Assembly (NCBI GenBank): GCA_032718475.1
Contig: JAUCBJ010006048.1
Coordinates: 1-52,658 of the forward strand
Direction: 5' to 3'
Source: Nemertoderma westbladi
Taxonomy: Eukaryota > Animalia > Xenacoelomorpha
Length of the DNA: 52,658 bases
Positions within the stretch are counted from its first letter, which is position 1. Each line of letters starts with the position of its first letter. A program made the translations under genes and the position numbers. Below the pieces are notes generated by a model. The model ran no database searches, was not told the DNA's origin, and saw nothing but the letters and a program-made list of their open reading frames with translations. This document shows positions 22,192 to 47,272 of the stretch, piece after piece.

Positions 22192-23540
22192 GTGTCAAGT
22201 ATAATTGCAGTTATTCAAGTTACTTTTTTTACTCAGTTCATAAAGGTGTCAAGTACAATTGGTATAAAACATGTAATGCAAAATCTGACCTTTTTATTAA
22301 CACCCTACCAAAACTACAATCTGTAACTAACTTGATTCGATTTTGGTCATACATATAGATAGACCAAGAGTATTTATTGTTGTAGTTAAGAGTTTTAGTA
22401 CATCGTTCTTTTTTGTGTTTCAGTCACACTTTCATGACTTTGTGAATAAATTGGGAAGCTCTAACTTCGTCCTTAAATAGCGAGGAATTCTTTAGTCCCT
22501 TTGTAACCAACTATAATATACAGTAGCTTTTCCACGAATGGAACCTTCCAGCCTTTACCATGCCAATTTATATATATATATATATATTATATGAGTAAAT
22601 ATGGCCACTTAGTTTTTTTCTTTAACTTTTTTATTGTAAGGCTTTAGAAAACTATAGCTGATAGCTATCTATGGTAAATTGTCATAACCATGGATCACCC
22701 GAGCGCTTTTTTATATTATTGCATAATAATACATATACAAGGATTTTTCTGAAAATCGTAATATCTCTGTCATATATATTATATCTCAATACGATTCCTA
22801 TTCAAAATTCATAATTGATTACATTTATACAAGTTGCAATATGGCCCTCGCAAAATTATCTTCGAAATTACAAACTTTTAAAATAAAAATCATCCGAAAT
22901 ATTGTTCTTCAATAAAATAATATGCCATCTACAAGTTTTCAAAAAATTTAAGCAAACTAATTTTTTACAGTTTTTTTAGGTGACATACATATATAATATG
23001 TATGTCCAAACTTCCCCAAAAAATGAGTTTGAATATAATATTATGGACCTGATACTAACTTTTAGCTGCGAAACAAATTTTTTATAACATTCAATGATGG
23101 TTTTATTTTGCGACTTTTTATATTTGAGTTATGTAACTTACATACACATGACGTATTGAATTAGTGGCCCAATGAACACATTTACCATATTGTAAGGAAA
23201 TTAATTAATTTTTTTAGGTTTTCTCGGTGTGGCCATATGGTTGATATTAGAATCAACTACATCAAGCTATATTATTTTATTTAATTATACTCATTTTATA
23301 ATTATAATTGGCAGTATTATTATTATTTACGCAGAAACCGCATCTGAAAATTGTAGCCTTTTACATACTGCTTTACTAGTGTCTGGAATACAGTCAAAAA
23401 TCCAATTTCTTCGGTACATACTAAAACATAAAACAACCTGAAACAAGATAAACAACATGAACCAAGCTTAGATAAGCATAAAATACATTAGCGGAAACTA
23501 CCAGAGGGGGGGGGGGGGTCATATTGGCCCTCCTTCTCAA

Positions 23541-26500
23541 CTAAGTTCGCGTTTAGGATCTAAGTTGGCACATATGATCTAAGTTCGCATCTAGGATCTA
23601 AGATCACCTATAGGATATAAGTTCGCCTGCAGGATCTAAATTCGAGTCTAGGATCTAAGTTGGCGTATAGGATCTAAGTACGCCTATAGGATCTAAGTTC
23701 GCCTATAGGATCTAAGATCGCATATAAGATCGAAGTTCGCCTATAGGTTCTAAGTTCGCCTATAGGATCTAAGTTCGCGTATAGGATCTAAGATCGAATT
23801 TAGGATCTAAGTTCGCCTATAGGTTCTAAGTTCGCCTATAGGATCTAAGTTCGCGTATAGGATCTAAGATCGCATATCGGATCTAAGTTCGCCTTTAGGA
23901 TCTAAGTTCGCCTATATGATCTAAGTTCGCCTATAGGATCTAAGTTTGCCTATAGGATCTAAACAGAGTCTAGGATCTAAGTTGGCCTATATAGGATCTA
24001 AGTTCGAGTCTAGGATCTAAGATCGCGTCTAGGATCAAAGTTCGCCTCTAGGATCTAAGTTCGCTTTTAGGATCTAAGTTCGCCTATAGGATCTAAGTTC
24101 GAATATAGGATCTAAGTTCGCATATAGGATCTAAGTTCGCGTCTTGTATCTAAGATCGCACATAGAATCTAAGTTTGCGTATAGAATCTAAGTTCGCTTC
24201 TAGGATCTAAGTTCGCGCCTAGGATCTAAGTTCGCCTATAGGATCTAAGATCGCCTATAGGATCTAAGTTCAAATATATGATCTAAGTTTGCATATAGGA
24301 TCTAAATTCGCGTCTAGGATCTAAGTTCGCGTATAGGATCTAAGTTCGCGTCCAGGATCTAAGTTCGCGTCTAGGATTTAAGTTCGCATATAGGATCTAA
24401 GTTCGCCTATAGGATCTAAGTTCGCCTATAGGATCTAAGTTCGAAAATAGGATCTAAGATCGCCTATAGGATCTAAGTTCGCGTATAGGATCTAAGTTCG
24501 CGTCTAGGATCTAAGTTCGCGTCTAGGATCTAAGTTCGCGTCTAGGATCTAAGTTCGCATATATGATCTAAGTTCGCCTATAGGATCTAAGTTCGAAAAT
24601 AGTATGTAAGATCGCCTATAGGATCTAAGTTCGCGTATAGGATCTAAGTTCGCATATAGGATCTAAGTTTGCATCTAGGATCTAAGTTCGCGTCTAGGAT
24701 CTAAGTTCGCGTATAGGATCTAAGTTCGCATATAGGATCTAAGTTCGCGTCTAGGATCTAAGTTCGCATATAGGATCTAAGATCGCCTATAGGATCTAAG
24801 TTCGCGTATAGGATCTAAGTTCGCGTCTAGGATCTAAGTTCGCGTCTAGGATCTAAGTTCGCGTCTAGGATCTAAGTTCGCATATAGGATCTAAGTTCGC
24901 CTATAGGATCTAAGTTCGAAAATAGTATGTAGGATCGCCTATAGGATCTAAGTTCGCGTCTAGGATCTAAGTTCGCATATAGGATCTAAGTTCGCATCTA
25001 GGATCTAAGTTCGCGTCTAGGATCTAAGTTCGCGTATAGGATCTAAGTTCGCGTCCAGGATCTAAGTTCGCGTCTAGGATCTAAGTTCGCATATAGGATC
25101 TAAGTTCGCCTATAGGATCTAAGTTCGCCTATAGGATCTAAGTTCGAAAATAGGATCTAAGATCGCCTATAGGATCTAAGTTCGCGTATAGGATCTAAGT
25201 TCGCGTCTAGGATCTAAGTTCGTGTCTAGGATCTAAGTTCGCGTCTAGGATCTAAGTTCGCGTATAGGATCTAAGATCGCATATAGGATCTAAGTTCGCC
25301 TATAGGTTCTAAGTTCGCCTATAGGATCTAAGTTCGCGTATAGGATCTAAGATCGCATATAGGATCTAAGTTCGCCTTTAGGATCTAAGTTCGCCTATAT
25401 GATCTAAGTTCGCCTATAGGATCTAAGTTTGCCTATAGGATCTAAACAGAGTCTAGGATCTAAGTTGGCCTCTTTAGGATCTAAGTTCGAGTCTAGGATC
25501 TAAGATCGCGTCTAGGATCAAAGTTCGCCTCTAGGATCTAAGTTCGCCTTTAGGATCTAAGTTCGCCTATAGGATCTAAGTTCGAATATAGGATCTAAGT
25601 TCGCATATAGGATCTAAGTTCGCGTCTTGTCTCTAAGATCGCACATAGAATCTAAGTTTGCGTATATGATCTAAGTTTGCATAGGATTTAAGTTCGCGTA
25701 TAGAATCTAAGTTCGCTTCCAGGATCTAAGTTCGCGTCTAGGATCTAAGTTCGCCTATAGGATCTAAGATCGCCTATAGGATCTAAGTTCAAATATATGA
25801 TCTAAGTTCGCATATAGGATCTAAATTCGCGTCTAGGATCTAAGTTCGCGTATAGGATCTAAGTTCGCGTCCAGGATCTAAGTTCGCTTCTAGGATCTAA
25901 GTTCGCATATAGGATCTAAGTTCGCCTATAGGATCTAAGTTCGCCTATAGGATCTAAGTTCGAAAATAGGATCTAAGATCGCCTATAGGATCTAAGTTCG
26001 CGTATAGGATCTAAGTTCGCGTCTAGGATCTAAGTTCGCGTCTAGGATCTAAGTTCGCGTCTAGGATCTAAGTTCGCATATAGGATCTAAGTTCGCCTAT
26101 AGGATCTAAGTTCGAAAATAGTATGTAAGATCGCCTATAGGATCTAAGTTCGCGTATAGGATCTAAGTTCGCATATAGGATCTAAGTTCGCATCTAGGAT
26201 CTATGTTCGCGTCTAGGATCTAAGTTCGCGTATAGGATCTAAGTTCGCGTCCAAGATCTAAGTTTGCATATAGGATCTAAGTTCGCATCTAGGATCTAAG
26301 TTTGCATATAGGATCTAAATTCGCGTCTAGGATCTAAGTTCGCATATAGGATCTAAGTTCGCGTCCAGGATCTAAGTTCGCGTCTAGGATCTAAGTTCGC
26401 ATATACGATCTAAGATCGCCTATAGGATCTAAGTTCGCGTATAGGATCTAAGTTCGCGTCTAGGATCTAAGTTCGCTTCTAGGATCTAAGTTCGCGTCTA

Positions 26501-29500
26501 GGATCTAAGTTCGCATATAGGATCTAAGTTCGCCTATAGGATCTAAGTTCGAAAATAGTATGTAAGATCGCCTATAGGATCTAAGTTCGTGTCTAGGATC
26601 TAAGTTCGCATATAGGATCTAAGTTCGTATCTAGGATCTAAGTTCGCGTCTAGGATCTAAGTTCGCGTATAGGATCTAAGTTCGCGTCCAGGATCTAAGT
26701 TCGCGTCTAGGATCTAAGTTCGCATATAGGATCTAAGTTCGCCTATAGGATCTAAGTTCGCCTATAGGATCTAAGTTCGAAAATAGGATCTAAGATCGCA
26801 TATAGGATCTAAGTTCGCGTCTAGGATCTAAGATCGCATATCGGATCTAAGTTCGCCTTTAGGATCTAAGTTCGCCTATATGATCTAAGTTCGCGTCTAG
26901 GATCTAAGTTGGCCTATATAGGATCTAAGTTCGAGTCTAGTATCTAAGATCGCGTCTAGGATCAAAGTTCGCCTCTAGGATCTAAGTTCGCCTTTAGGAT
27001 CTAAGTTCGCCTATAGGATCTAAGTTCGAATATAGGATCTAAGATCGCATATCGGATCTAAGTTCGCCTTTAGGATCTAAGTTCGCCTATATGATCTAAG
27101 TTCGCGTCTAGGATCTAAGTTGGCCTATATAGGATCTAAGTTCGAGTCTAGTATCTAAGATCGCGTCTAGGATCAAAGTTCGCCTATAGGATCTAAGTTC
27201 GCGTCTTGTATCTAAGATCGCACATAGAATCTAAGTTTGCGTATATGATCTAAGTTTGCATAGGATCTAAGTTCGCGTATAGAATCTAAGTTCGCTTCTA
27301 GGATCTAAGTTCGCGTCTAGGATCTAAGTTCGCCTATAGGATCTAAGATCGCCTATAGGATCTAAGTTCAAATATATGATCTAAGTTTGCATATAGGATC
27401 TAAATTCGCGTCTAGGATCTAAGTTCGCGTATAGGATCTAAGTTCGCGTCCAGGATCTAAGTTCGCGTCTAGGATCTAAGTTCGCATATAGGATCTAAGT
27501 TCGCCTATAGGATCTAAGTTCGCGTATAGGATCTAAGTTCGAAAATAGGATCTAAGATCGCCTATAGGATCTAAGTTCGCGTATAGGATCTAAGTTCGCA
27601 TATAGGATCTAAGTTCGCATCTAGGATCTACGTTCGCGTCTAGGATCTAAGTTCGCGAATAGGATCTAAGTTCGCGTCCAGGATCTAAGTTCGCGTCTAG
27701 GATCTAAGTTCGCATATAGGATCTAAGATCGCCTATAGGATCTAAGTTCGCGTATAGGATCTAAGTTCGCGTCTAGGATCTAAGTTCGCGTCTAGGATCT
27801 AAGTTCGCGTCTAGGATCTAAGTTCGCATATAGGATCTAAGTTCGCCTATAGGATCTAAGTTCGAAAATAGTATGTAAGATCGCCTATAGGATCTAAGTT
27901 CGCGTCTAGGATCTAAGTTCGCATATAGGATCTAAGTTCGCATCTAGGATCTAAGTTCGCGTCTAGGATCTAAGTTCGCGTATAGGATCTAAGTTCGCGT
28001 CCAGGATCTAAGTTCGCGTCTAGGATCTAAGTTCGCATATAGGATCTAAGTTCGCCTATAGGATCTAAGTTCGCCTATAGGATCTAAGTTCGAAAATAGG
28101 ATCTAAGATCGCCGATAGGATCTAAGTTCGCGTATAGGATCTAAGTTCGCGTCTAGGATCTAAGTTCGTGTCTAGGATCTAAGTTCGCGTCTAGGATCTA
28201 AGTTCGCGTATAGGATCTAAGATCGCATATAGGATCTAAGTTCGCCTATAGGTTCTAAGTTCGCCTATAGGATCTAAGTTCGCGTATAGGATCTAAGATC
28301 GCATATAATATTAATTCGATACACCCCCAGGCGGGGTAAATGGAAACCAGTAAAATTTATGTACATAAATAAATAGAAAATAAATTGAATACAATTATTA
28401 GTTATTGAGATGCGAGACGGGAAAGTGGAGGGCAGTCGCTGCAGTTCAGTGCATGATATCGTCGTGTACATGGGAGGTTACAGTACTGACATATACATTC
28501 GGTGGATAGCGAGTGGAAAGGCGTTTGGTTGACGCAGATTAGGTGGTGGAACCCATGGGCGGTCGCACGAGTAATAACGTGCCTGTTACGCTGACCAGCC
28601 ATTTTCCAATGGGAGCTCTGGAATCCGGGGCCGTCCAGGAAAGATTCTGTGATGAAGTTGTTGTTGCGTTCGCGTCGGTGCTCGCGGTATCTGGAGGAGA
28701 CGTCATCAGTTAATAAGTCTGGATATTTCAATAGTACTGCGGCCATAAATGGAGGTTCGTTAATCAAGTTTAGAGCGAGTGTAGAGGAGGCTGATGTGTG
28801 GAGAGACAACATTCTTTTGATGTGTTGCGTCTTTATTTTATCCAATTCTTTAAGGTTCTGTAATGTTAGGTATTTACCAATACTAGTTATTAGGTAGAGT
28901 GCTGAAGGGGCAATTTTCATGTTGAATATTTTTAGTCCTGTTTCAATAGAGAGTAAACGGAGATGTGTCAGTGAACCGATTGTTGAATAAGCAGTGGCTT
29001 TCTTTAACTGGATGTGCTCAGAGAAGCAGAGGGACGGTTGAAGGACTAGATCGCATATAGGATCTAAGTTCGCCTTTAGGATCTAAGTTCGCCTATATGA
29101 TCTAAGTTCGCCTATAGGATCTAAGTTTGCCTATAGGATCTAAACAGAGTCTAGGATCTAAGTTGGCCTATATAGGATCTAAGTTCGAGTCTAGGATCTA
29201 AGATCGCGTCTAAGTTTGCCTATAGGATCTAAACAGAGTCTAGGATCTAAGTTGGCCTATATAGGATCTAAGTTCGAGTCTAGGATCTAAGATCGCGTCT
29301 AGGATCAAAGTTCGCCTCTAGGATCTAAGTTCGCCTTTAGGATCTAAGTTCGCCTATAGGATCTAAGTTCGAATATAGGATCTAAGTTCGCATATAGGAT
29401 CTAAGTTCGCGTCTTGTATCTAAGATCGCACATAGAATCTAAGTTTGCGTATATGATCTAAGTTTGCATAGGATTTAAGTTCGCGTATAGAATCTAAGTT

Positions 29501-31807
29501 CGCTTGTAGGATCTAAGTTCGCGTCTAGGATCTAAGTTCGCCTATAGGATCTAAGATCGCCTATAGGATCTAAGTTCAAATATATGATCTAAGTTCGCAT
29601 ATAGGATCTAAATTCGCGTCTAGGATCTAAGTTCGCGTATAGGATCTAAGTTCGCGTCCAGGATCTAAGTTCGCGTCTAGGATCTAAGTTCGCATATAGG
29701 ATCTAAGTTCGCCTATAGGATCTAAGTTCGCCTATAGGATCTAAGTTCGAAAATAGGATCTAAGATCACCTATAGGATCTAAGTTCGCGTATAGGATCTA
29801 AGTTCGCGTCTAGGATCTAAGTTCGCGTCTAGGATCTAAGTTCGCGTCTAGGATCTAAGTTCGCATATAGGATCTAAGTTCGCCTATAGGATCTAAGTTC
29901 GAAAATAGTATGTAAGATCGCCTATAGGATCTAAGTTCGCGTATAGGATCTAAGTTCGCATATACTGTAGGATCTAAGTTCGCATCTAGGATCTAAGTTC
30001 GCGTCTAGGATCTAAGTTCGCGTATAGGATCTAAGTTCGCGTCCAGGATCTAAGTTTGCATATAGGATCTAAGTTCGCATCTAGGATCTAAGTTTGCATA
30101 TAGGATCTAAATTCGCGTCTAGGATCTAAGTTCGCATATAGGATCTAAGTTCGCGTCCAGGATCTAAGTTCGCGTCTAGGATCTAAGTTCGCATATACGA
30201 TCTAAGATCGCCTATAGGATCTAAGTTCGCGTATAGGATCTAAGTTCGCGTCTAGGATCTAAGTTCGCTTCTAGGATCTAAGTTTGCGTCTAGGATCTAA
30301 TTTCGCATATAGGATCTAAGTTCGCCTATAGGATCTAAGTTCGAAAATAGTATGTAAGATCGCCTATAGGATCTAAGTTCGTGTCTAGGATCTAAGTTCG
30401 CATATAGGATCTAAGTTCGCATCTAGGATCTAAGTTCGCGTCTAGGATCTAAGTTCGCGTATAGGATCTAAGTTCGCGTCCAGGATCTAAGTTCGCGTCT
30501 AGGATCTAAGTTCGCATATAGGATCTAAGTTCGCCTATAGGATCTAAGTTCGCCTATAGGATCTAAGTTCGAAAATAGGATCTAAGATCGCCTATAGGAT
30601 CTAAGTTCGCGTATAGGATCTAAGTTCGCGTCTAGGATCTAAGTTCGTGTCTAGGATCTAAGTTCGCGTCTAGGATCTAAGTTCGCATATAGGATCTAAG
30701 TTCGCCTATAGGATCTAAGTTCGAAAATAGTATGTAAGATCGCCTATAGGATCTAAGTTCGCGTCTAGGATCTAAGTTCGCGTCTAGGATCTAAGTTCGC
30801 ATATAGGATCTAAGTTCGCCTATAGGATCTAAGTTCGAAAATAGTATGTAAGATCGCCTATAGGATCTAAGTTCGCGTCTAGGATCTAAGTTCGCGTCTA
30901 GGATCTAAGTTCGCATATAGGATCTAAGTTCGCCTAAAGGATCTAAGTTCGCCTATAGGATCTAAGTTCGCATATAGGATCTAAGTTCGCGTCTAGGATC
31001 TACGTTCGCCTATAGGATCTAAGTTCGCATATATGATCTAAGTTCGCGTCTAGGATCTAGGTTCGCCTATAGGATTTAAGTTCGCATAGGATCTAAGTTC
31101 GCGTATAGGATATAGGTTCGCCTATAGGATCTAAGTTCGAAAATAGTATGTAAGATCGCCTATAGGATCTAAGTTCGCCTATAGGATCTAAGTTCGCCTA
31201 TAGGATCTAAGTTCGCCTATAGGATCTAAGTTCGCCTATAGGATCTAAGATCGCCTATAGGATCTAAGTTCAAATATATGATCTAAGTTCGCATATAGGA
31301 TCTAAGTTCGCGTATAGGATCTAAGTTCGCCTATAGGATCTAAGTTCGCCTATAGGATCTAAGTTCGCGTATAGGATCTAAGTTCGCGTCTAGGATCTAA
31401 GTTCGCGTCTTGGTTCTAAGTTCGCGTCTAGGATCTAAGTTCGCGTCCAGGATCTAAGTTCGCATATAGGATCTAAGTTCGCCTATAGGATCTAAGTTCG
31501 AAAATAGTATGTAAGATCGCCTATAGGATTTAAGTTCGCGTATAGGATCTAAGTTCGCATATAAGATCTAAGTTCGAAAATAGGATCTAAGATCGCCTGA
31601 TCTAAGTTCGCCTATAGGATCTAAGTTCGCCTATGGGATCTAAGTTCGCGTCTAGGATCTAAGTTCGCGTCTAGGATCTAAGTTCGCATATAGGATCTAA
31701 GTTCACCTATAGGATCTAAGTTCGCGTCTAGGATCTAATTTCGCATATAGCATCTAAGATCGCATATAGGATCTAAGTTCGCCTATAGGATTGAAGTTCG
31801 CCTTTAG
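23541..31807. repeat. 19-bp satellite (TAGGATCTAAGTTCGCNTM), roughly 390 copies; short remnants near 32580, 32960-33195, 37035-37180 and 37700
   Basis: Period of 19 measured directly (ggatct at 24488, 24507, ...). Confidence 0.98.
28308..29047 (-). mobile_element. 5'-truncated non-LTR retrotransposon (post-RT region + CCHC zinc knuckle) inserted in the 19-bp satellite
   Basis: 12-bp TSD AGATCGCATATA at 28296-28307 and 29048-29059; frame open from the 5' break (VLQPSLCFSEHI...KIFNMKIAPSALY) to CQYCNLPCTRRYHALNC and the stop at 28402. Confidence 0.85.
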
Positions 31808-31904
31808 TACACTACTAGTACTGTACTAGATCGGTCGAGGGAGCTCGGACAAATGGTTGAAATATTTCGGTGACAAATATTAATTGTTGAGAAACTTATT
31901 AGGG

Positions 31905-32525
31905 TTAAAAATGCCATTTGAGTATGGCCGGTCCATATTGTAACCCATATTATGTCAGGTTGAAAATTACCTTTTGATTATTTTGCCGGCGTTTTTTTTG
32001 TCCCGCAATACTACACCATATGGTGTTACATTGTTTTTTCATCGTGTGATCTGATAATCTCACCCCCTACACAGAGATACTAAAAATTATATTAAATGTC
32101 ATTTCAATATGGCCGGGCCATATTGTAACCCATATTATCTCAGGTTGAAAATTACCTTTTAGATTATTTTGTCGGCGTTTTTTTGTCCCGCAATACTACA
32201 CCATATGGTGTTACATTGTTTTTTCATCGTGTGATCTGATAATCTCACCCCCTACACAGAGATACTAAAAATTATATTAAATGTCATTTCAATATGGCCG
32301 GGCCATATTGTAACCCATATTATCTCAGGTTGAAAATTACCTTTTAGATTATTTTGTCGGCGTTTTTTTGTCCCGCAATACTACACCATATGGTGTTACA
32401 TTGTTTGTTCATCGTGTGATCTGATAATCTCACCCCCTACACAGAGATACTAAAAATTATACTAAATGCCAGTTGAATATGGCCGGGCCATATTGTAACC
32501 TAGGGTGTATATTATCTCAGGTTGA
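31905..32525. repeat. 185-bp tandem repeat, ~3.3 copies
   Basis: atatggccgggccatatt at 32107, 32292 and 32477 (variant near 31922). Confidence 0.92.
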
Positions 32526-33057
32526 TATAATGCCAAATACATGCGAAATACAATTTGCAACATATGGCCTCAGTTCTAACCTAGAATCTAAGTTCGCATC
32601 TAGGATCTAAGTTCGCATATAGGATCTAAGTTCGCATATCGGATCTTAATCAACCTGTCGAATATTTGAACGTTAATAACTAGGGAAATCCTCGATGAAA
32701 CACTACTAGTACTAGGTCGGTCTAGGGAGCTCGGACAAACCGTTGAAATATTTCGGTGAGAAATATTAATTGTTGAGAAAATTATTATTAGGGTTAAAAA
32801 AGGCTTTTTCTCAGACATCAACAATATCCACTCCCAAACTTGATATTACTAAATTAAATATGGCCGGGCCATATCGTAACATATATTATCTCAGGTTGAT
32901 ATAATGCCAAATACATGCGAAATACAATTTGTCAACATATGGCCTCAGTTCTAAGTTCTAACCAAGGATCTAAGTCCGCCTATAGGATCTACGTTCGCGT
33001 ATCGGATCTAAGTTCGCGTCTAGGATCTAAGTTCGCGTCTTGGATCTAAGTTCGCGT

Positions 33058-33417
33058 CTAGGATCTAAGTTCGCGTTTAGAATCTAAGTTCGCGTATAGG
33101 ATCTAAAGTTCGTTTATAAGAACTAAGTTCGCGTCTAGGATTTACTTTCGTGTATAGGATATAATCTACGTTAGCCTATATGATCTAAGTTCGGATAAAT
33201 CGTTGAAGTATTTCAATGAAAAATATTATTAATTGTTGAGAAAATCATTATTAGGGAGGGAAAAAGGCTTTTTCTCAGACATCAACAACATCCACTCCCA
33301 AACTTAATACCATTAAATTAAATATGGCCGGGCCATATCGTAACATATATTATCTCAGGTTGATATATTGCCAAATACATGTGAAATATAATTTGTCAAC
33401 ATATGGCCTTGACTTTC
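33058..33417. repeat. ~360-bp direct repeat, left copy
   Basis: Matches 37035-37406 from ctaggatctaagttcgcgtttagaatc to catatggccttgactttc. Confidence 0.9.
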
Positions 33418-33909
33418 TAAATCATTATTTATATAAGGACATTCCAAAATTACCTTTTTAATTATTTGTCGGAAAATGCTTGACCCGCAATACTTACCTT
33501 CCCATATTACGTGATCCAAATATTTACCGTACCGATTAAAAAAGTACAATATTTAATACTGAAACAAAATATATTCATTAAAACTAACAGCACATATTTT
33601 AGCACACTGAAGTAAAGTTTTACTTTACCATAATGATACATGCAGAAGAAACAAGATAAGAGTAATAAACAACATTTACTGCTACAATATTTACACTTTA
33701 AAATATTAATTTGAATAACTAAATTGAAGTAATAAAAGGAAAATGAGAAGATGTATTAAAAATGTCTACTCTAAATTAGAAACGAAATTAACAAAGTTTA
33801 GCACGAATCTGCAATCCGAATGTTTACATCGCACTTAATAAGATATTTTTATTTTTGAGATATTCTTACATCTGCAGTCTGTATGTAATGTAAGTTAAAA
33901 CTTCTTAAA

Positions 33910-34583
33910 GCTCGCATGTGTTATAAAACACAATACTAAAACATACGCAACAAAACTAATATAGAAAACTTACTTAACCTCTGAACACATTTAGGTGCTC
34001 GCATGTGTTATAAAACACAATACTAAAACATACGCAACAAAACTAATATAGAAAACTTACTTAACCTCTGAACACATTTAGGTGCTCGCATGTGTTATAA
34101 AACACAATACTAAAACATACGCAACAAAAATAATATAGAACACTTACTTAACCTCTGAACACATTTAGGTGCTCGCATGTGTTATAAAACACAATACTAA
34201 AACATACGCAACAAAACTAATATAGAAAACTTACTTAACCTCTGAACACATTTAGGTGCTCGCATGTGTTATAAAACACAATACTAAAACATACGCAACA
34301 AAACTAATATAGAAAACTTACTTAACCTCTGAACACATTTAGGTGCTCGCATGTGTTATAAAACACAATACTAAAACATACGCAACAAAAATAATATAGA
34401 ACACTTACTTAACCTCTGAACACATTTAGGTGCTCGCATGTGTTATAAAACACAATACTAAAACATACGCAACAAAACTAATATAGAAAACTTACTTAAC
34501 CTCTGAACACATTTAGGTGCTCGCATGTGTTATAAAACACAATACTAAAACATACGCAACAAAAATAATATAGAAAACTTACT
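33910..34583. repeat. 87-bp tandem repeat, ~7.7 nearly identical copies
   Basis: gctcgcatgtgttataaaacac... starts at 33910, 33997, 34084, 34171, 34258, 34345, 34432 and 34519. Confidence 0.97.
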
Positions 34584-34753
34584 ATAAAATAAATCACTAT
34601 TATGATGTCCAAGTCAAAGTCATATTATTACGTGGTGGTGCGTTAGTTGGAGAATTTTCTGTATTTGACAGTAATTGTTGATATAAGTCATCTGAATTTA
34701 TAGCATCACTATTAGTATTTATATTATCACTATTAGTAGTACACAATCCAAAA

Positions 34754-35455
34754 TCATGGGTAGCTAGTAGTAGATGTGTTGGAGAAAGCTTTCGCTTTCT
34801 CCAATCTATGATAGGCATCCACCGATTGTTTTATTGTCTTTGTGGAGTCGTAGGTCCTCTTCTGGGTGATACCACTGTGACCCATATGTTGGACCACATT
34901 TTCTACGTCGCCTGGGTCACCAGGTAGCCGCTGGTTGCATATGCTCAGGGTATGACGAACATATGTACTTCCCGCCTTGCTCTTCGATTCTGGTAGAATT
35001 AATTTCCACAGATTGTTAAAGAGTGTTGAAGTATTGTCAACGGAGTTTCCACTGGGATTTGTAAACATCAGGTCTGATTTACTAGCAAGTGGACTGAATA
35101 GTGTGCGGCCAAACTCAAACAAAGCAAGTAACATATTATAAACGGCTTCAGGCATTGTTAACTTAATGGGCCCTTGATAATTAGATTTGTGATTAAACAC
35201 CTTTATGACCCTGACACCATCATCCGGACAATGCACCACGTCTTTAAATTCAGTTACTAACAGGTTCCGTACAGCACCAGCACGTGCTCCGTTTTTATAT
35301 GACAATATGGCCATAACATATGTTTGCATTTGAACCAAAGAAAATTCATCGCTAACTTTCGATTCAATGTTTAATAGATCACGTTGAAGACGGAGGGAGA
35401 TGGGGTCAGTTTCAAAACGTTGAAGTTCCTCTGCAGTCGGGTATTCTAACTCCAT
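34754..35455 (-). CDS. Tyrosine recombinase (phage-integrase fold) catalytic domain, 233 aa
   Basis: NGAR58AGAVRNL, NHK90, T164YVR167H, HMGH193S, Y202: R-K-(H)xxR-H-Y order and spacing; no stops or frameshifts. Confidence 0.82.
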   Translation of the reverse strand: MELEYPTAEELQRFETDPISLRLQRDLLNIESKVSDEFSLVQMQTYVMAILSYKNGARAGAVRNLLVTEFKDVVHCPDDGVRVIKVFNHKSNYQGPIKLTMPEAVYNMLLALFEFGRTLFSPLASKSDLMFTNPSGNSVDNTSTLFNNLWKLILPESKSKAGSTYVRHTLSICNQRLPGDPGDVENVVQHMGHSGITQKRTYDSTKTIKQSVDAYHRLEKAKAFSNTSTTSYP

Positions 35456-35799
35456 GATACCGATACTATTATACTGATACGGTACGATAGGCTGATAGGC
35501 TGATAGGCCTATGGTAGAACGATAAGTACAAAAAATTATGTACTGGCTTGGTCCTTAGTCAGAGTAGTGCCGGTACGTTATCCTGTTATCTGTATGGCCA
35601 GACAGCCAGATGACTAATTACATGATTATGGATTACAGGAGTACTCCTGCGTCCTGTCAGGTTGTACTGCTGCAGGCCTACTGTGTACCGGGGTACCAGT
35701 ACCGGTACTCAATGCTGAGATGCTCAAGGACAATATCCCACAGCCACTAGCAGACTTAGCAATACAGTATTAAAGTAGGCCTATTGGTACCGGTAATAC

Positions 35800-36915
35800 A
35801 GCTGGTAACGCGTAGTTCGATACATTGGGTGATATATCACCAGTTTCAGAGTTTTAACATTAACACAGTACGCGTAGGTGATACGCGTAGCTACGCGTAG
35901 GTCCTACGCGAACTACGCGTAGGTGCTACCCATAACTATGCCTATACGACGTTTATCATTAGTAAGCAAACATATTCCAAAGCGGTTCGGTACTAAAATA
36001 AGACAATACTGTATGTGATGTTCAATATACAACCATCAAATGGTTTCAACAGAAATGTCTCCTATACCTGTATATATAATCCATGTAGTGGCATACTGTA
36101 CGCTACTACACATTCTTCACTTAATGTGTTGCGCGCGCAATACTGTTTTATAATAATGTTTAGAGTTCAAAAATAGTTTACAAGGAAATAGGCAGATGGT
36201 TCTTATCGATTCTCCATTGCTATTTATTGCCTTTATTCACGAGAGGGAAAGGATATATTTAATATGCTAAATCCGTCGAGAATGGAAGGGGGAGAATAAT
36301 TGTCCACCATGATTGGTTGCACTTGTTATTTTACTAAACAATTGAATTTTACAGTATTATCAGCTTTTCACTTAACCACTTCACCGAGACTGGTAGCTTA
36401 TACAACTGTAGAATATTTAAATTATCCAATGGAAACAAAAAGACTTGGTATAATATACGTGGATTTTAAGTTTACTTTTATTCATCCTGTCCCTGTGATG
36501 TTTGTATATGAAAGAGCCGAATATTATTTGATACCAGTGCTCTGTAGGAGAAATGAGTTTCAGATTATGTTATTCCTTGTGTGATAAATCAGATACCTGA
36601 AATATACAGTACTGTACCAATATTTGCCTAACAACTCAAGCAATACCGGACCTGAAATGAAAAATCTTTGTTATCAGGCTGTTACGCGTAGCTACGCGTG
36701 CACCTACGCGAAGTGCTACGCCGTAGTTTTAAAATACATATGCGTAGTTCCAAAATACCTACGCGTAGTTTTAAAATGCCTACGAGTGGTTTTTAAAAAG
36801 GCAGTAAGTCTGGCCCTACCGGTAAATGACAGCAATTGAAGTTACAAACTACGCGTAGGACTACGCTTAGGTCGGAAAGATTTACCCCAACTACAACTAC
36901 AGCTACACCAGTCAG
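35800..36915. repeat. Segment bounded by two clusters of the palindromic TACGCGTA motif (possible MITE); ends approximate
   Basis: Repeated tacgcgtag at ~35808-35925 and ~36682-36870 around unrelated AT-rich DNA. Confidence 0.5.
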
Positions 36916-37034
36916 GAGTCAGCTGGTACTAGTCACCGGGCATCAGCCACCCCCCCCCCCCCCCACCCCCCCTCTCTATAGACTTACACCAAGGAAAATA
37001 AATTAGTGATCATTAATGTGTGCCAAGTTGTAAC

Positions 37035-37406
37035 CTAGGATCTAAGTTCGCGTTTAGAATCTAAGTTTGCGTATAGGATCTAAAGTTCGTTTATACTGTA
37101 AGAACTAATTTCGCGTCTAGGATTTACTTTCGTGTATAGGATATAATCTACGTTAGCCTATATGATCTAAGTTCTAAGTTCGGACAAATCGTTGAAGTAT
37201 TTCAATGAAAAATATTAATTGTTGAGAAAATAATTATTAGGGTTAAAAAGGCTTTTTCTCAGACATCAACAATATCCACCCCCGAACTTGATACTGTATC
37301 ATTAAATTAAATATGGACGGGCCATATCGTAACATATATTATCTCAGATTGATATATTGCCAAATACATGTGAAATATAATTTGTCAACATATGGCCTTG
37401 ACTTTC
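37035..37406. repeat. ~370-bp direct repeat, right copy
   Basis: Copy of 33058-33417 with two CTGTA insertions and a few other differences. Confidence 0.9.
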
Positions 37407-40072
37407 CACCACATGCTGCACTGTACATATACTTCCTTTCCTATACTGTACAGGCCTACAGTACAGCTGTTACCCAAATATACATATGATAATAAATATT
37501 TCTTTATAGGCCTACTTATTTTTGAACAGTTAATATAATACGCTTTATTTACCTCACGTACCACTGATAACATTTATTTTTACCGAGCGAATGAGGTGAG
37601 CGAGGTCAATAAGACAAGAATAGAAATATAAAATATATAATAAGAAGATAATCTTGAGAAAGGTTATTTTTTGTTTATGTCAAAGTTCAATCGCATGTAT
37701 AGGATCTAAGTTCTTACCAGGATCTATGTTTACCAATCATCATAATGAGGATCTAGGTTCGCTAGGAAGGCGCAATTTTGTGTAAGCTTTGGGTGAGATA
37801 TAAAAATTATTGCTCACCACTAAGTATGAGGGAGTTGAAACTAACTCGGTTTCAATTGTCATGATGCAATCTCATTAACCTTTATCGTGGAGGTGTCCTA
37901 CCTGAATAAAGACTCTTGATATACTGTAAGGTGTATAAGGTTGAATAAAATTGGAAGACGGTTGGACTGGGACATAATGACTAAGGCTAAATATTAAAAG
38001 CTAAAAAAATCTGGCTACACTATCTTCCGAGACGTGTGTAATGGACGGATCAAATTTAATATACTTTGATTATTATTGTTATAAAATACCTGAGGTGTTC
38101 TAGAACTAGATGGTAAAGTAATTGACTGGGAGGAAAAAGGTATCTTTATATTTTTTCAAAAAACTGTTTATTCCAAACATAGACCTCATACGTCTACTAG
38201 AGTATGAGATGAAGCGTAAATCGCAAAGTTTATATAAGCCAATTTTGTCTCTAGTTAAAACAAAAATATTACATTAAAAAACCATCCGGCGGCGTCTAGA
38301 TTAAACATTTAACATTGAACAAGGTGTGAAATTAGTGATGTAAATTTGTCAACCGATCCACACTTAACGTTTCTAGATGTATTTTGAGCATTTAATAAAA
38401 CTAACAAAAACATTTCCTCTAATTAAGTAATTTACTGCACATCTTCACTGTACAGTATTAGATGTAACACATTGGCCACATAATATACAGTGTAATATAC
38501 AACAAGTCATTATATTGATTCAGATACATTAATGTGTGGTGTTGGTTTCAGTATAGGATAGACATATGGCCACGGTGGCCATATGTCTGCAAAAGTAACA
38601 ATATGGCCCAAAAGTTACTCTATGGCCACCATATTATCCCTACCGCCCACCATATGGCCACCTACCTAGGGACCAGTAGGCCATATGGTTACCTATAATA
38701 TCCATTATTATATATAAATTCTTGTCTGACTGTGGACTTGTGTGACTTTGTTGACTGGTTTCTTATCGGGAGTAGCTGGGATAGCGCAGTGGTTTCACTC
38801 TCACTACGAGATAGCACTTGAGCGAGCCACCCACAGGAAGATATCCATATTTCCTTGAACAACACTGCCAGATTTTTATTTTTCGTACAGGATTCAATGA
38901 TATGGATTCAATGGACAAGCTATTGAACCACTAACCCTACAGTACCGAAATTATAAAACCGCAGGTTACGCACAATTAAAAAGTTAACGAATTAATTCAA
39001 CCAGTCACAGTTCAGGTTTTAATTATAACTATATTAGTTATTAATAAAATAAAAATTTTATTTTACCTTCCCACTAAGTCGATGTTTCTCTACATCTCAA
39101 GTTACTTTTTTTACTCAGTTCATAAACGTGTCAAGTATAATTGCAGATATTCGAGTTACTTTTTTTACTCGGTTCATAACGGGGTCAAGTATAATTGCAG
39201 TTATTCAAGTTACTTTTTTACTCAGTTCATAAAGGTGTCAAGTATAATTGCTTTGTTTCCAGTTACTTTTACTCAGTTCATAAGGGTGTCAAGTATAATT
39301 GCTTTACTTTCAGTTACTTTTACTCAGTTCATAAAGGTATCAAGTATAATTGCAGTTATTCAAATTGCTTTTCTACTCAGTTCATAAAGGTGTCAAGTAT
39401 AATTGCTTTACTTCCAGTTACTTTTACTCAGTTCATACAGGTATCAAGTATAATTGCAGTTATTCAAATTGCTTTTCTACTCAGTTCATAAAGGTGTCAA
39501 GTAGAGTTGCAACAGAGACCTGTTTTTCTTAATCCCGGTAAACCAGAGACCTACCCAGAGAATTATTTTGAAAAATACCGGATACCAGAGCCGGAGATCA
39601 GAGACTTTGCATATCTTTGTTCTTACAGTTTGATTAGTCCCATAAAGCACAAACAGGTACATATGGACTGATAACTGTTTTTATATGGTTGAATTACAGT
39701 AAATCCAACCCATTTCAACCCTTAGTTCACACTACCGAGTCAAAGTAAAAGTCAAAAGACAAAATGTAAAACATAATCACAAGAAATATAATTTGTTCTA
39801 GAATGCCCTTATGTATTTATTATATTAGGCCTATACATAATGTATTATTATTTATTATTGCTACCTAGCTATATTTAATTTATTTTGACTTTGACTCGGT
39901 AGTGTGAACGCGGCCTTATCCATTGGAAGAAAATAAGCACACGTACAGTTTGGGGGACTTAATTAAAATTAATTTGGTTATTTGTTTATTAGTTCGTTCT
40001 TATTTTGTTATTTTTAATTAATAATATGTTACATAAATTTGTTTTGCGCCATAGGTACCGGTACTTTGTTAA

Positions 40073-42871
40073 CACTAGAACAGCCGGACGCGTCAATTGA
40101 CGAAAATCAAAATGAAAGATGCTCTATTTTTTAAACTATTTGTTTATATACCATGATTCTCCATGACTTTTATTATTTTTGGCTAATGGTTCGAATGCAG
40201 GAAAAAAAAAGTGTACAAATTTTATACAAAATTTTTAAATCATTGATTGTCTTTAACAGCCACATGCGTCAATTGACGCAATTTCGGTTTTTCCTATAAA
40301 GTTCAGAAAGAAATATAATTTGATGATAGAAAACATGACAATTATTAGTTAGATTTATTTAGACATTATATTATTTAGACAATTATTAATTCATATTACT
40401 GAATGCACTTATTGCACACAAGTGCTTGGCACTTGCCACACATTGGTAGATTACACTTTGCACACTTGGAAACAGTTTTGTTGCGTTGGCAGTTGCTCCT
40501 GATTGCACAGGTTACTCGCTTCCTTGCGGCCAAAGGCAAAGGGGAAGCAACAGCTGGCTCATATGCGGGCTCATCAATCTGGCCAGCAACATCTTTCCGT
40601 AGTTCAGATGACAGTTCCATTAGAAATCGACGACGACTCATTTGGCTACCTGTCTTCTTCCGATACAGAATCCATGCATTTACTCCTGAAATATCAAGGA
40701 TATTGAAGAATACAGCTAAGGGCCATCGTCTGCAGCCCGCCTTTGTTGACATCATCCGAGCCATGGAATCCAGTAAGTCTACTCCAAATTTGTTGTTGTT
40801 ATAGTACACAATCATCTCTGGTTTACGTTTTCCATCATCCTGCCTCCTTGAGCCATTGTGTTGGGTTGATATGATATGTACTACCTTCTTTGCTTTGGCT
40901 TGGTAACGAGTGAGATGAACTTGACCAGTTTGGAAAAAAACAGAATCATGGAGTTGAAGTTTCTGAGAAGGTGGGAGTTCGCGCCGGTTAGATCGCACAG
41001 TCCCGACTAGAGTGATACGTCGTTGCAACAAATTTTCGGCAAGACCTTTGTTGGTAAAAAAATTGTCTGTTGTCACATTATAACCCTTACCATACAAAGG
41101 CTCTGTCAGCTTCATAACAACATGGGTTCCAAGACTAGTTTCTCGAGTTTCATCCTTCCCCAGGTAGGGTAACATGTTGTAGCAGAATTTGGTTTCTACT
41201 TCTGCTAAAATCCAAAACTTTATACCAAACTTATCTGGCTTGTTCGCCATGTATTGAGTAAATTTGCACCTTGCCTTTGTAGGAAACAATTGTTCATCGA
41301 CTGTCATGGATACATCTGGAACATAGCTTTTTTGGCTATTCTCAATGAAGCGATTCAGTACCCAAGAGATCATACAAAAAGTTATCAGTTTCTAGATTTG
41401 CTTGGCGAGTAGATTTTTTATCAAAACGTAAATACTTCTTGATTTCGCGGAAACGATTACGTGGCATTGTTCTGGAAAATGCTGGACATCCCATGCTTTT
41501 TGACCACAATAAGTCTAGTGGAAAATTGCGTTGGTTCATGACACCTCTTAGATATAGTAACCCAAAAAAGGACTCCAACTCTTCCTCAGACAGCAACCAA
41601 TCTGGTAAGAATGTTTGTGCGTATTCCTTTGTACAGTCGAGAATGAAACGTATACATCCCTCATCGATCAGCAGTCTCCATGCATCTGCTGGTGTTTGGA
41701 TATTACGACAATAATTTGTCACTCCAACCCTTGCTGTATAAACATTATGTCTCTCATACCGACCAGCAGGTATTTGCCCAGCAAATTTCCATTTTGTCCC
41801 ATCTTTTCCTTCATGAACCGGAGCATCATTATCAACATCTGTCTCAGACTCACTAGATGAATCAGAATTTTCTTCATTGACTTCACCCGCTTCCGATTCA
41901 TGGTCGTCGCTTTCATCACCACTTTCATCACTCCGGATGTCCAAAAGACGTACCAAGGCTTCTTCAGCTGTATAACGCCGCGCCATAGCAATAAACTTAT
42001 ACAATATGGGTGTAATATTCAGACTTACCTACTTGGGCTATGTAAATAAAAGTATTGCAGTATTTATGATTATATATTATTATTATTTTTGATTGGTAGC
42101 ATACATCAAGCTTAGGTTATATGTTTGTATACTTACTTAGAATATTTACTACTTTATCCCTAGACCATCAGACTCTGTAAGTCAGTACAGCAGTACTGTA
42201 CATACTACTGTATGTACATACATACTATATGAATATTAGATTATAATTATTTATTTATTAGATTATTAATATTAATATTATTATATATAGCATATAATGT
42301 TTAGTAGGCATGCTGTAGTACAGGCAGAGAGGGGGGGGGGGGAGACTCTGGCTGAACACACTGCCTGACTTTACCCCCTAACAGAAATAATAAGCAAGTT
42401 TATCTATAGTACACTAGACACCACTGCCCAGTCAGTCAGTACAGCACAAAAGCAGATTGTCAAGATGTCAAGTTGCTCTAGGCCTATAGGCCTAACTAAC
42501 TACCACTATTCCTGAAACACTGCCTGATGTACTACAGTGAGCCTAACAGGGAATAATAATTATTAAAAAATAGAATAATAAACTAAGTTTATCCATAATA
42601 TACAGTGTTAGACACCACAGCGCATCAGTCAGTCAGTACAGCTCCACTACTGCACTAAGGCAGACTATCAGGTTGTCAAGAAATACCAGCAGGCCTACAC
42701 ACACAGTTATCTGGAATAGTCAGATACTGGTAGGCCCTGATACCACATTCTACCTACAATATTGACAGAGACCTGCAATGTATAAAGACAAGTATTGCTG
42801 ATACAATGTTGACTTGTGTCAATTGACGCAGTTGGCTGTTAACGTGTGTCAAAATTCCGGCTGTTCTAGTG
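40073..42871 (-). mobile_element. Full-length piggyBac transposon (2799 bp)
   Basis: TTAA TSD at 40069-40072 and 42872-42875; perfect 16-bp TIR CACTAGAACAGCCGGA; subterminal inverted repeats containing GTCAATTGAC; empty site present in three sister hAT copies. Confidence 0.96.
40396..42004 (-). pseudogene. piggyBac DDD transposase (~535 aa if joined) with one frameshift
   Basis: ORFs 41342-42004 + 40396-41373; MPRNRFREIKKYLRFD, VDEQL, KPDKFGIKFW, TDNFFT, YNNNKFGVDLLD, RRWPL, Cys-rich C-terminus; frameshift at the A5 run 41376-41380. Confidence 0.95.
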
Positions 42872-45800
42872 TTAATTAAAGGCACTTATTTTACAATTGT
42901 TCAAATCATATACATTTCATTCAATGTGCTATAAAATAAACTTAGTAAATTACGAATACAGTGCACAGGTATGGTACTCTACTCGCCCCATATACAAGCC
43001 TCGTTACGCTCTTTCTCTTCATTTGGTCGTCATATTATCTATTATAACAAGTTGAATGGAGATCAGCCCTTTCTTTCACTTTTAAACATTATGAGTGCTC
43101 AAATTAAGCACCTTTATCCTTAAATAAGAACCATCTTTAGGTGCTAATTTAACTTACAATTAAACGCACCTTAAATTAATTAAATAGAAGATTATCGGTA
43201 CATTTAGTTTGAGTCAGACTTAGAGTTAGATTAAAAACAGTGTAAAAGTGAATATATAATTTTGTTGAAGCGGAGTATTAAAATATTTAAAAATTACAGA
43301 AATTATTAATTGTAAAAAATTTGTGAAAAATAATCTTCAATTCACATTTTGTGTTGTACAGGATCTATTATTAAATAACTATTTCTAATTTGGAAAATCA
43401 CTGATCTCTGGGTAAAATGTCTGTTTTCAATACCCGGGAACCAGAGACCTATCCAGAGACCAAAATACCGCCCGGAGAATCCAGAGATCAGAGAACAGTT
43501 ACAAGTCTCTGTTTCAACTCTAGTGTCAAGTATAATTGCAGTTATTCAAGTTACTTTTTTTACTCAGTTCATAAAGGTGTCAAGTACAATTGGTATAAAA
43601 CATGTAATGCAAAATCTGACCTTTTTATTAACACCCTACCAAAACTACAATATATCCGCTGTATCTAACTTGATTCGATTTTGGTCATACATATAGATAG
43701 ACCAAGAGTATTTATTGTTGTTGTTAAGAGTTTTAGTACATCGTATCTTTGTTGTGTTTCAGTCACACTTTCATGACTTTGTGAATAAATTGGGAAGCTC
43801 TAACTTCGTCCTTAAATAGCGAGGAATTCTTTAGTCCCTTTGTAACCAACTATAATACACAGTAGCTTTTCCACGAATGGAACCTTCCAGCCTTTACCAT
43901 GCCAATTTATATATATTGTTATATATAAATTCTTGTCGGACTGTGGACTTGTGTGACTTGGTTGACTGGTTTCTTATCGGGAGTAGCTGGGATAGCGCAG
44001 TGGTTTCACTCTCACTACGAGATAGCACTTGAGCGTGCCACCCACAGGAAGATATCCATATTTCCTTGAACAACACTGCCAGATTTTTATTTTTCGTACA
44101 GGATTCAATGATATGGTTTCAATGGACAAGCTATTGAACCACTAACCCTACAGTACCGAAATTATAAAACCGCAGGTTACGCACAATTAAAAAGTTAACG
44201 AATTAAGCAACCAGTCACAGTTCAGGTTTTAATTATAACTATATTAGTTATTAATAAAATAAAAATTTTATTTTACCTTCCCACTAAGTCGATGTTTCTC
44301 TACATCTCAAGTTACTTTTTTTACTCAGTTCATAAACGTGTCAAGTATTATTGCAGTTATTCGAGTTACTTTTTTTACTCGGTTCATAAAGGGGTCAAGT
44401 ATAATTGCAGTTATTCAAGTTACTTTTTTACTCAGTTCATAAAGGTGTCAAGTATAATTGCTTTGTTTCCAGTTACTTTTACTCAGTTCATAAGGGTGTC
44501 AAGTATAATTGCTTTACTTCCAGTTACTTTTTTACTCAGTTCATAAAGGTATCAACTATAATTGCAGTTATTCAAATTGCTTTTCTACTCAGTTCATAAA
44601 GGTGTCAAGTATAATTGCTTTACTTCCAGTTACTTTTACTCAGTTCATAAAGGTATCAAGTATAATTTCAGTTATTCAAATTGCTTTTCTACTCAGTTCA
44701 TAAAGGTGTAAAGTATAATTGCTTTACTTCCAGTTACTTTTACTCAGTTCATAAAGGTATCAAGTATAATTGCAGTTATTCAAGTTACGTTTTTTACTCA
44801 GTTCATAAAGGTGTCAAGTATAATTGCAGTTATTCAAGTTACGTTTTTTACTCAGTTCATGAAGGTGTCAAGTATAATTGCAGTTATTCGAGTTACTTTT
44901 TTTACTCGGTTCATACAGGGGTCAAGTATAATTGCAGTTATTCAAGTTACTTTTTTACTCAGTTCATAAAGGTGTCAAGTATAATTGCTTTGTTTCCAGT
45001 TACTTTTACTCAGTTCATAAAAGTGTCAAGTATAATTGCTTTACTTCCAGTTATTTTTACTCAGTTCATAAAGGTGTCAAGTATAATTGCAGTTATTCAA
45101 GTTACGTTTTTTACTCTGTTCATAAAGGTGTCAAGTATAATTGCTTTGTTTCCAGTTACTTTTACTCAGTTCATAAAGGTGTCAAGTATAATTGCTTTAC
45201 TTCCAGTTACTTTTACTCAGTTCATAAAGGTATCAAGTATAATTGCAGTTATTCAAATTGCTTTTCTACTCAGTTCATAAAGGTGTCAAGTATAATTGCT
45301 TTACTTCCAGTTACTTTTACTCAGTTCATAAAGGTGTCAAGTATAATTGCAGTGTATTCCAGTTACTTTTCTACTCGGTTCATAAAGGTGTCAAGTATAA
45401 TTGCTTTACTTCCAGTTACTTTTACTCAGTTCATAAAGGTATCAAGTATAATTGCAGTTATTCAAGTTACGTTTTTTACTCAGTTCATAATGGTGTCAAG
45501 TATAATTGCAGTTATTCAAGTTACTTTTTTACTCAGTTCCTAAAGGTGTCAAGTATAATTGCAGTTATTCAAGTTACTTTTTTTACTCAGTTTATAAAGG
45601 GGTCAAGTATAATTGCAGTTATTCAAGTTACTTTTTTACTCAGTTCCTAAAGGTGTCAAGTATAATAGCAGTTATTCAAGTTACTTTTTTTACTCAGTTC
45701 ATAAAGGTATCAAGTATAATTGCAGTTATTCAAATTGCTTTTCTACTCAGTTCATAAAGGTGTCAAGTATAATTGCTTTACTTCCAGTTACTTTTACTCA

Positions 45801-47272
45801 GTTCATAAAGGTATCAAGTATAATTGCAGTTATTCGAGTTACTTTTTTTACTCGGTTCATACAGGTGTCAAGTATAATTGCAGTTATTCAAGTTACTTTT
45901 TTACTCAGTTCATAAAGGTGTCAAGTATAATTGCTTTACTTCCAGTTACTTTTACTCAGTTCATAAAGGTATCAAGTATAATTGCAGTTATTCAAATTAC
46001 TTTTCTACTCGGTTTATAAAGGTGTCAAGTATAATTGCTTTACTTCCAGTTACTTTTACTCAGTTCATAAAGGTATCAAGTATAATTGCAGTTAATCAAG
46101 TTACGTTTTTTACTCAGTTCATAATGTTGTCAAGTATAATTGCAGTTATTCAAGTTACTTTTTTACTCAGTTCCTAAAGGTGTCAAGTATAATAGCAGTT
46201 ATTCAAGTTACTTTTTTTACTCAGTTCATAAAGGGGTCAAGTATAATTGCAGTTATTCAAGTTACTTTTTTACTCAGTTCATAAAGGTGTCAAGTATAAT
46301 TAATTGCGTTGTTTCCAGTTACTTTTACTCAGTTCATAAAGGTGTCAAGTATAATTGCTTTACTTCCAGTTTCTTTTACTCAGTTCATAAAGGTATCAAG
46401 TATAATTGCAGTTATTAAAATTACTTTTATACTCAGTTCATAAAGGTGTCAAGTATAATTGCTTTACGTCCAATTACTTTTACTCAGTTCATAAAGGTAT
46501 CAAGTATAATTGCAGTTATTCAAGTTACTTGTTTTACTCAGTTCATAAAGGTGTCAAGTATAATTGCAGTTATTCAAGTTACTTTTTTACTCACTTCATA
46601 AAGGTGTCAAGTATAATTGCTTTACTTCCAGTTACTTTTACTCAGTTCGTAAAGGTGTCAAGTATATTTGCAGTTATTCAAGTTACTTTTTTTACTCAAT
46701 TCATAAAGGTGTCAAGTACAATTGGTATAAAACATGTAATGCAAAATCTGACCTTTTTATTAACACCCTACCAAAACTACAATATATCCACTGTAACTAA
46801 CTTGATTCGATTTTGGTCATACATATAGATAGACCAAGAGTATTTATTGTTGTAGTTAAGAGTTTTAGTACATCGTTCTTTTTTGTGTTTCAGTCACACT
46901 TTCATGACTTAGTGAATAAATTGGGAAGCTCCAACTTCGTCCTTAAATAGAGAGGAATTATTTAGTCCCTTTGTAACCAACTATAATATACAGTAGCTTT
47001 TCCACGAATGGAACCTTCCAGCCTTTACCATGCCAATTTATATATATTATTATATATAAATTCTTGTCTGACTGTGGACTTGTGTGACTTTGTTGACTGG
47101 TTTCTTATCAGGAGTAGCTGGGATAGCACAGTGGTTTCACTCTCACTCAGTTCATAAAGGTGTCAAGTATAATTGCTTTACTTCCAGTTACTTTTACTCA
47201 GTTCATAAAGGTATCAAGTATAATTGCAGTTATTCAAGTTACTTTTTTTACTCAGTTCATAAAGGTGTCAAG

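Follow-up and report, generated by a model that had tools for sequence, protein, structure and literature searches.

Tyrosine recombinases of animal viruses and mobile elements

Kawato et al. 2023 described telomere- and 28S-rDNA-associated tyrosine recombinases (YRs) of nimaviruses, together with non-viral YR-like proteins of decapods (PMC10871703). According to that paper, the nimaviral integrases combine a SAM-like domain at the N-terminus with a C2H2 zinc domain and keep five of the seven key residues; they are set apart from the recombinases of DIRS, Enterprise and Crypton elements, and target the telomere repeat or 28S rDNA (PMC10871703). The same text notes related crustacean proteins without a link to a virus, gives two whispovirus recombinases as predicted multi-exon genes, and describes clopoviruses in isopod hosts (PMC10871703). 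A second group to consider is CryptonV, recombinase-encoding DNA transposons of cnidarians with some microsatellite-specific families (PMC8869645), which are presented as a Repbase-listed, target-specific cnidarian group (PMC8869645, PMC5753468, PMC4455052). CryptonA/I (DUF3504), CryptonF/S and Starship captains (DUF3435) are likewise eukaryotic elements moved by a tyrosine recombinase (PMC3212892, PMC13465315).

The window, by which we mean the whole 52,658-nt stretch of Nemertoderma westbladi DNA analysed here, contains a 233-aa ORF that is the catalytic half of a tyrosine recombinase. We conclude that it is probably a 5′-truncated, decaying and inactive relic of a low-copy, recombinase-only mobile element, derived from a transposon. 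Its relatives share the architecture of the recombinases of Kawato et al. as outlined there (C2H2 zinc domain and SAM-like domain), and the window ORF is tied to them by the sequence of its catalytic domain. The relatives retain R, K, R, H and Y but lack the box II His, and nearly all of them lack the acidic residue of box I too; we infer that the five retained residues are the key residues counted in that paper. Compared with the nimaviral YRs, the window copy is a catalytic domain only, with no viral genes nearby, and the family reaches beyond them into cnidarians and echinoderms (named matches) and chordates and molluscs (Atlas cluster labels). CryptonV elements are recombinase elements of cnidarians, and the relatives found here are multi-copy in hydrozoans. 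Some CryptonV families have a microsatellite target, whereas neither a microsatellite target nor an element end was identified at the window. CryptonV is the obvious candidate name for the family, which we take as a lead only. CryptonA/I, CryptonF/S and Starship captains share the recombinase fold with the window ORF, going by their published outlines.

The ORF and its catalytic residues

The initial annotation had proposed an uninterrupted 233-aa ORF, and translation gave 233 amino acids and a stop codon on the minus strand, which the annotation had not named. R58, K90, R167, H193 and Y202, along with the Thr in box II, are all where it had put them. The features are as follows.

34754..35455, minus strand: 233-aa ORF for the catalytic domain of a tyrosine recombinase; its start corresponds to the linker behind the core-binding domain of relatives
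35282..35284, minus strand: R58, box I arginine (R in 71 of 74 relatives)
35186..35188, minus strand: K90, catalytic lysine (K in 74 of 74 relatives)
34955..34966, minus strand: T164-x-x-R167, box II, with Thr replacing the usual His (among 69 filled rows, T in 54, His in 0 and R in 67)
34877..34879, minus strand: H193, second catalytic His (H in 68 of 68 filled rows)
34850..34852, minus strand: Y202, nucleophile tyrosine (Y in 67 of 68 filled rows)

The stop-free frame reaches 33 codons above the ATG, to 35554, and none of 500 base shuffles of 33418–37000 held a stop-free frame of at least 233 codons. All five residues (R, K, R, H, Y) occur together in 63 of 74 relatives. The R-K-H-R-H/W-Y set is present in its five-residue form only, since the box II His is replaced across the family, and at least 72 of the relatives' 74 rows have no acidic residue three positions past the box I Arg. 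Given the frequency of Thr at box II and the lack of a single His there, Thr is a family trait; the substitution that had been singled out in the window is present at T164, but it is the family norm and not special to this copy.

Relatives and family range

Among 1.84 billion representatives searched, 75 matched the query (the 233-aa translation) at E ≤ 0.001, with identities of 22–36%. One of them, P0024, is a repeat protein and was removed before all counts, leaving n = 74 relatives. None was more than 36% identical, and no conserved orthologue was found. On its own the query gave nothing relevant against Pfam, PHROGs or PDB sequences, and word-based protein searches at near and longer lengths returned no relative. 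Scans of viral contigs with P0023 and P0001, a method that catches close relatives only, also returned none.

The named clusters (5 of 30 looked up) were those of Anneissia, Penaeus japonicus with BDT61756.1, Armadillidium, Asterias and Hydractinia, so that the named relatives are crinoid, starfish, hydrozoan and isopod proteins plus one endogenous-nimavirus integrase; a Clytia relative was added by profile search. BDT61756.1 is the tyrosine recombinase of the Marsupenaeus japonicus endogenous nimavirus and shares the 90% cluster of one match. Its identity to the window ORF is 30% over 190 aa (pairwise E 6e-15). Atlas neighbours were eukaryotic clusters first, with chordates, arthropods and molluscs commonest, followed by bacterial PF00589 clusters. 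PF00589 itself matched weakly in 10/75, with 1/75 above the Pfam cut-off. From these sequence comparisons we identify the family as the one containing the nimaviral integrases and many non-viral animal proteins. Our literature search, which had Repbase Reports and Kojima 2020 outside its reach, returned PMC10871703 as the only description of the family's sequence features and no account of its wider animal range.

Relatives commonly extend past the query at both ends. A C2H2-like pattern was seen in 16 of 74, and 43 of 74 continue for at least 50 residues past query residue 222; the zinc domain and the SAM-like N-terminal domain found in relatives are absent from the window copy, as would be expected if it is truncated. 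Several members occur in single genomes (8 Hydractinia members on scaffolds of four lengths, and 12 in another cluster), and at one relative locus, L001, a single 771-aa ORF lies in 10.8 kb of repeat-bearing DNA where other ORFs are at most 219 aa. Multi-copy relatives and the lone ORF at L001 fit a recombinase-only mobile element.

Two individual relatives had further features. Just past the stop codon of the 771-aa ORF at L001 is a 400-bp element with 23–25-bp terminal inverted repeats (8892–9291 of that locus), a second copy of which lies 5.7 kb upstream at 3143–3569. The best match, P0002 (Anneissia LOC117114584), has a near-identical partial second catalytic domain at its N-terminus, and this extra copy opens with a Met of the linker that joins the core-binding domain to the catalytic one.

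Predicted fold

Structure prediction and Foldseek, which had been put forward as a check on the annotation, found the integrase fold, restricted to the catalytic domain, with XerH and Cre among the matches. The AlphaFold model of the 233-aa ORF, made from a 68-row alignment, has a pLDDT of 89.9 and a pTM of 0.83. Its top Foldseek match was XerH (E 1.8e-5). VIA-align gave Z 15.8 against XerH residues 170–361 (rmsd 5.6, 184 aligned) and Z 14.3 against Cre 130–341 (rmsd 4.1, 190 aligned), and the matched stretches of both proteins are their catalytic domains only. The family profile matched XerA at E 8.3e-10 over the core-binding and catalytic domains and sets the five conserved residues onto XerA catalytic positions, an equivalence that rests on profile alignment. 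A library of predicted viral structures returned distant integrases only, the best at E 1.5e-4. By the fold of the predicted model, the ORF is confirmed as a member of the tyrosine recombinase (integrase) superfamily. It has the same fold and catalytic order as the catalytic domains of XerH, XerA and Cre, and differs from these proteins in its low identity to them (7–20%), in being without a core-binding domain and in having Thr for the box II His.

Several named groups could be set aside. Neither DUF3504 nor DUF3435 (Pfam, E 0.01) matched the query or any of the 75 matches (0/75), which speaks against a CryptonA/CryptonI identity on the first and a Starship identity on the second. No gag, reverse transcriptase (RT) or RNase H was found in six frames of 33418–34753 and 35456–38500, which speaks against DIRS, Ngaro and VIPER elements. 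The RT that the window does hold (962–1402) adjoins an APE endonuclease 33 kb from the ORF, which also counts against DIRS, as does the small size of all other ORFs (219 aa or less) at the relative locus L001.

Probable truncation at the ATG

The ORF had been described as having no visible N-terminal core-binding domain, and the profile of the core-binding region found none in the window either: 35 of 36 held-out members scored at least 27 bits, compared with at most 1.5 bits for the six frames of the window. A C-terminal profile scored above 10 bits for 37 of 43 held-out members and at most 1.3 bits for the window, and tblastn of all 74 relatives against the window gave nothing beyond the ORF's own frame. 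Ahead of query residue 6, relatives have at least 100 residues in 36 cases of 74, with a core-binding domain among them, and 25–99 residues in 18/74; 7/74 start at the linker and 13/74 inside the catalytic domain. Many of the short relatives are probably fragments produced by automatic gene calling.

Read data were available from four runs (X1–X4) that represent at most three samples, one of which may be the window's own source. Because the ORF stretch is present in four runs, an assembly artefact is excluded for the ORF. The place where other copies diverge, and the sequence beyond it, are listed here.

35455..35456: point at the ATG beyond which similarity to copies from other samples ends, probably the site of truncation (X4 record 30; lower depth on the upstream side in each of the four runs)
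35456..35860: non-coding segment, low in copy number and rich in GTAC, in the place expected for the 5′ part of the gene (11 GTAC against about 1.1 expected; X4 depth 0 at 35460–35663)
35860..36900 (approximate limits): repeat in high copy number that lies upstream of the fragment, is rich in ACGCGT at its ends and has no coding match

A 617-nt X4 contig has 3 differences over its match to the window, which runs from 35455 to 34963; the 124 nt left over lie beyond the ATG and are unmatched (the orientation of the contig follows from records 3, 10 and 20, all of which stop at 34613). Summed contig depth, which is a rough guide only, was 59 in X4 over 35256–35459 and 0 over 35460–35663, and past the ATG it fell from 92 to 32 in X1, from 197 to 36 in X2 and from 306 to 44 in X3 (14–35% of the preceding bin). 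The window's own junction exists in reads too, as an X1 contig spans 35408–35559 with no differences. Taken with the drop in X1–X3, the zero depth in X4 makes the window's upstream segment look like a minority arrangement. The upstream mismatch in X4 could reflect an inserted sequence or an intron at that point. In X2 and X3 there is, in addition, a form in which 128 nt of the ORF are skipped (35148 to 35277). The junction falls on both the ATG and the domain boundary, which for a random break would be a coincidence; a Met lies within the last 8 linker residues in 22 of 54 relatives.

Of the three options that had been offered for the missing N-terminal half, 5′ truncation is favoured by the X4 junction, the depth and the core-binding test, and a minimal enzyme is unlikely. 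The third, a spliced recombinase gene of which this ORF is the final exon, strikes us as quite unlikely; its upstream exons would have to fall beyond the window or escape detection by being very short, and its full protein would act as a normal two-domain recombinase. In-frame AG dinucleotides do stand 18 and 36 nt before the ATG behind stretches of 60–65% pyrimidines, the crinoid relative has seven annotated isoforms, the two whispovirus recombinases are predicted to be multi-exon in PMC10871703, and the 7 relatives noted above begin at the same linker. The would-be acceptors, however, sit in the segment that is absent from X4, and the 17 kb upstream consist of satellite, high-copy repeat and a piggyBac-like element with no core-binding signal, even though the test recovers nearly every held-out member. 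The differences between copies, which look neutral, also speak against a spliced gene.

Differences between copies

Codon counts were taken from 40 of 173 differences listed, 13 of them inside the ORF, and may mix alleles with paralogues. Among these listed differences 11 ORF codons differ, 10 of them non-synonymously and 1 synonymously, with 0 stops. In this small sample, the counts had a P of 0.27 under a neutral expectation of 22% synonymous changes and of 0.001 under a dN/dS of 0.2. At 8 of the 10 non-synonymous codons listed, the other copies bear the more frequent residue of the family; of the other two, one is a tie and one goes the opposite way. Two conserved columns are affected, where the window residue is found in 1/74 and 1/68 relatives and that of the other copies in 69 and 44. 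The dN/dS-type comparison of copies that had been suggested thus gave, for the differences listed, a pattern as for neutral decay. Read from sequence, the listed differences between copies look neutral, and the open frame here would not imply function; a young age of the copy, or chance in having met no stop so far, is probably all that keeps the frame open.

Weak cleavage activity can persist in integrase catalytic domains on their own, and this copy has the five family-conserved catalytic residues, an open ATG-to-stop frame and a confident model. The ORF could on these grounds be read as a functional catalytic-domain-only protein. It might be a minimal recombinase, might nick DNA in the manner of a topoisomerase, or might be a domesticated domain that a partner recruits to DNA. 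We find this very improbable given the 10 of 11 differing codons that are non-synonymous (among the differences listed), the deviation of the window copy at two family-conserved columns, an upstream region that is not common to all samples, copies that skip part of the ORF, and the lack of any relative above 36% identity or conserved orthologue among those found. A window copy that is without its DNA-binding half and shows signs of decay is likely a relic, in keeping with the truncated fragment favoured above.

Surrounding DNA and repeats

The window is repeat-rich and, judged by its contents, of animal type. The ORF lies in a 3.6-kb block that borders a satellite array and is flanked by two 370-bp repeats.

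33910..34583: 87-bp tandem repeat, 7.7 copies, beginning 170 bp past the stop codon
33058..33417, plus strand: left of the two copies of a satellite-linked repeat of 370 bp that enclose the 3.6-kb ORF block (91% identical to 37035–37406)
37035..37406, plus strand: right copy of the 370-bp satellite-linked repeat

We considered the 370-bp repeats as LTR-like ends and dropped the idea, since they are 9% diverged, belong to a satellite-linked unit and have further copies nearby. Around the ORF, a single fragment, we could assign neither a target site nor element ends such as the short direct repeats, without terminal inverted repeats, expected of Crypton elements. Depth over 35860–36900 was 2,500–42,000 in X1–X3, compared with 50–220 in unique flanks. 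ACGCGT palindromes cluster at both ends of this repeat, with 9 of the 10 sites in the window falling in 35808–36851.

Most other transposable-element ORFs had been called broken, and the neighbouring LINE and piggyBac-like ORFs are indeed in pieces. A broken non-LTR retrotransposon (962–3362, minus strand) has pieces of APE endonuclease (PF03372) and RT (PF00078) in three frames. The piggyBac-like transposase (PF13843; 40396–42028, minus strand) is split over two frames of 228 and 331 aa, and its element lies inside one copy of a unit of about 2 kb that is repeated at 95–100% identity over 17399–22587, 38698–40072 and 42870–51152, interleaved with 51–54-bp satellites. A 19-bp satellite fills 23541–31801 with 432 copies and is broken at about 28400–29300 by a 226-aa minus-strand frame that has no Pfam match and ends in a Cys/His cluster, which we take to be possibly a LINE C-terminus. 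A composite repeat (31809–33417 and 37035–37406) combines runs of the 19-mer, a 185-bp unit in 3.2 copies and a palindromic ATGGCCGGGCCAT motif. It is present in several copies that are 79–91% alike, and it may be a non-autonomous element that seeded the satellite.

Phylogeny and the question of a viral source

The kinship with BDT61756.1 raises the possibility that the same truncated, decaying fragment goes back to an endogenous virus with a large DNA genome, of nimavirus-like or another type, for which the recombinase served as integrase. Apart from that match, the isopod relatives come from the host group in which PMC10871703 places clopoviruses, and the query and nimaviral rows are adjacent in one of two quick trees. 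Neither tree places the query or separates a viral from a transposon origin. In the quick mixture-model tree (84 rows, 6 short rows dropped) the query is unplaced on a long branch. In the quick tree of 41 chosen rows the join with the nimaviral protein has a support of 46 and was flagged as two long branches meeting, and placing the query beside the crinoid protein gives an equally good fit (p-AU 0.49).

The surroundings also argue against a virus. No viral core genes, which an endogenous nimavirus would carry in a genome spanning hundreds of kb, were found among the 47 stop-free frames of at least 100 aa in the 52.7-kb window, and a Pfam scan of 9 translations and 12 flanking frames gave only LINE, DDE-transposase and repeat-artefact matches. 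There is no credible Pfam match within 1.3 kb downstream or 3 kb upstream of the ORF, and the remaining long ORFs of the window belong to LINE, piggyBac-like or satellite sequence. Matches to Orthopox_F14, PP1, Peptidase_M24_C and others were rejected, as their frames cross the 87-bp tandem repeat and hold at most one passing stretch. With most named relatives being non-crustacean animals as well, we consider a viral source unlikely.

A model for the parent element and its significance

For a transposon-derived fragment, we picture the following history by analogy with the chemistry of Cre and Xer. The zinc fingers and core-binding domain of the parent enzyme would clamp the element ends, R58, K90, R167 and H193 would activate the scissile phosphate, and Y202 would form a 3′-phosphotyrosine link. 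Two rounds of strand exchange by way of a Holliday-junction intermediate might then allow the element to be excised as a circle and inserted elsewhere. Repeated DNA may have served as the target, as described for nimaviral integrases and, with microsatellites, for CryptonV. The part coding the DNA-binding domains would later have been lost at the present ATG. A 233-aa product without a core-binding domain cannot clamp DNA, and site-specific recombination is therefore not expected of it.

The ORF adds a divergent member to a family that is known but has been little described, and the locus itself is likely an ordinary one. A broader reading, which we hold only tentatively, is that the fragment represents a divergent lineage of animal-wide, recombinase-only elements outside the named Crypton groups, which would target repeats and form the pool from which nimaviruses captured their integrases. 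The architecture in that reading would comprise zinc fingers, a core-binding domain, a Thr-type catalytic domain and a C-terminal helical domain.

Being most likely a dead fragment, the locus itself changes little, and its value is as a pointer to a family that escapes Pfam (a single match of 75 passes the PF00589 cut-off) and is found in cnidarians, echinoderms and crustaceans. This family includes the integrases that Kawato et al. link to site-specific insertion of endogenous nimaviruses (PMC10871703). If the family proves to be a transposon superfamily apart from CryptonV, the donor of the nimaviral integrases would be identified, and animals would have native site-specific recombinases with a natural His-to-Thr active site.
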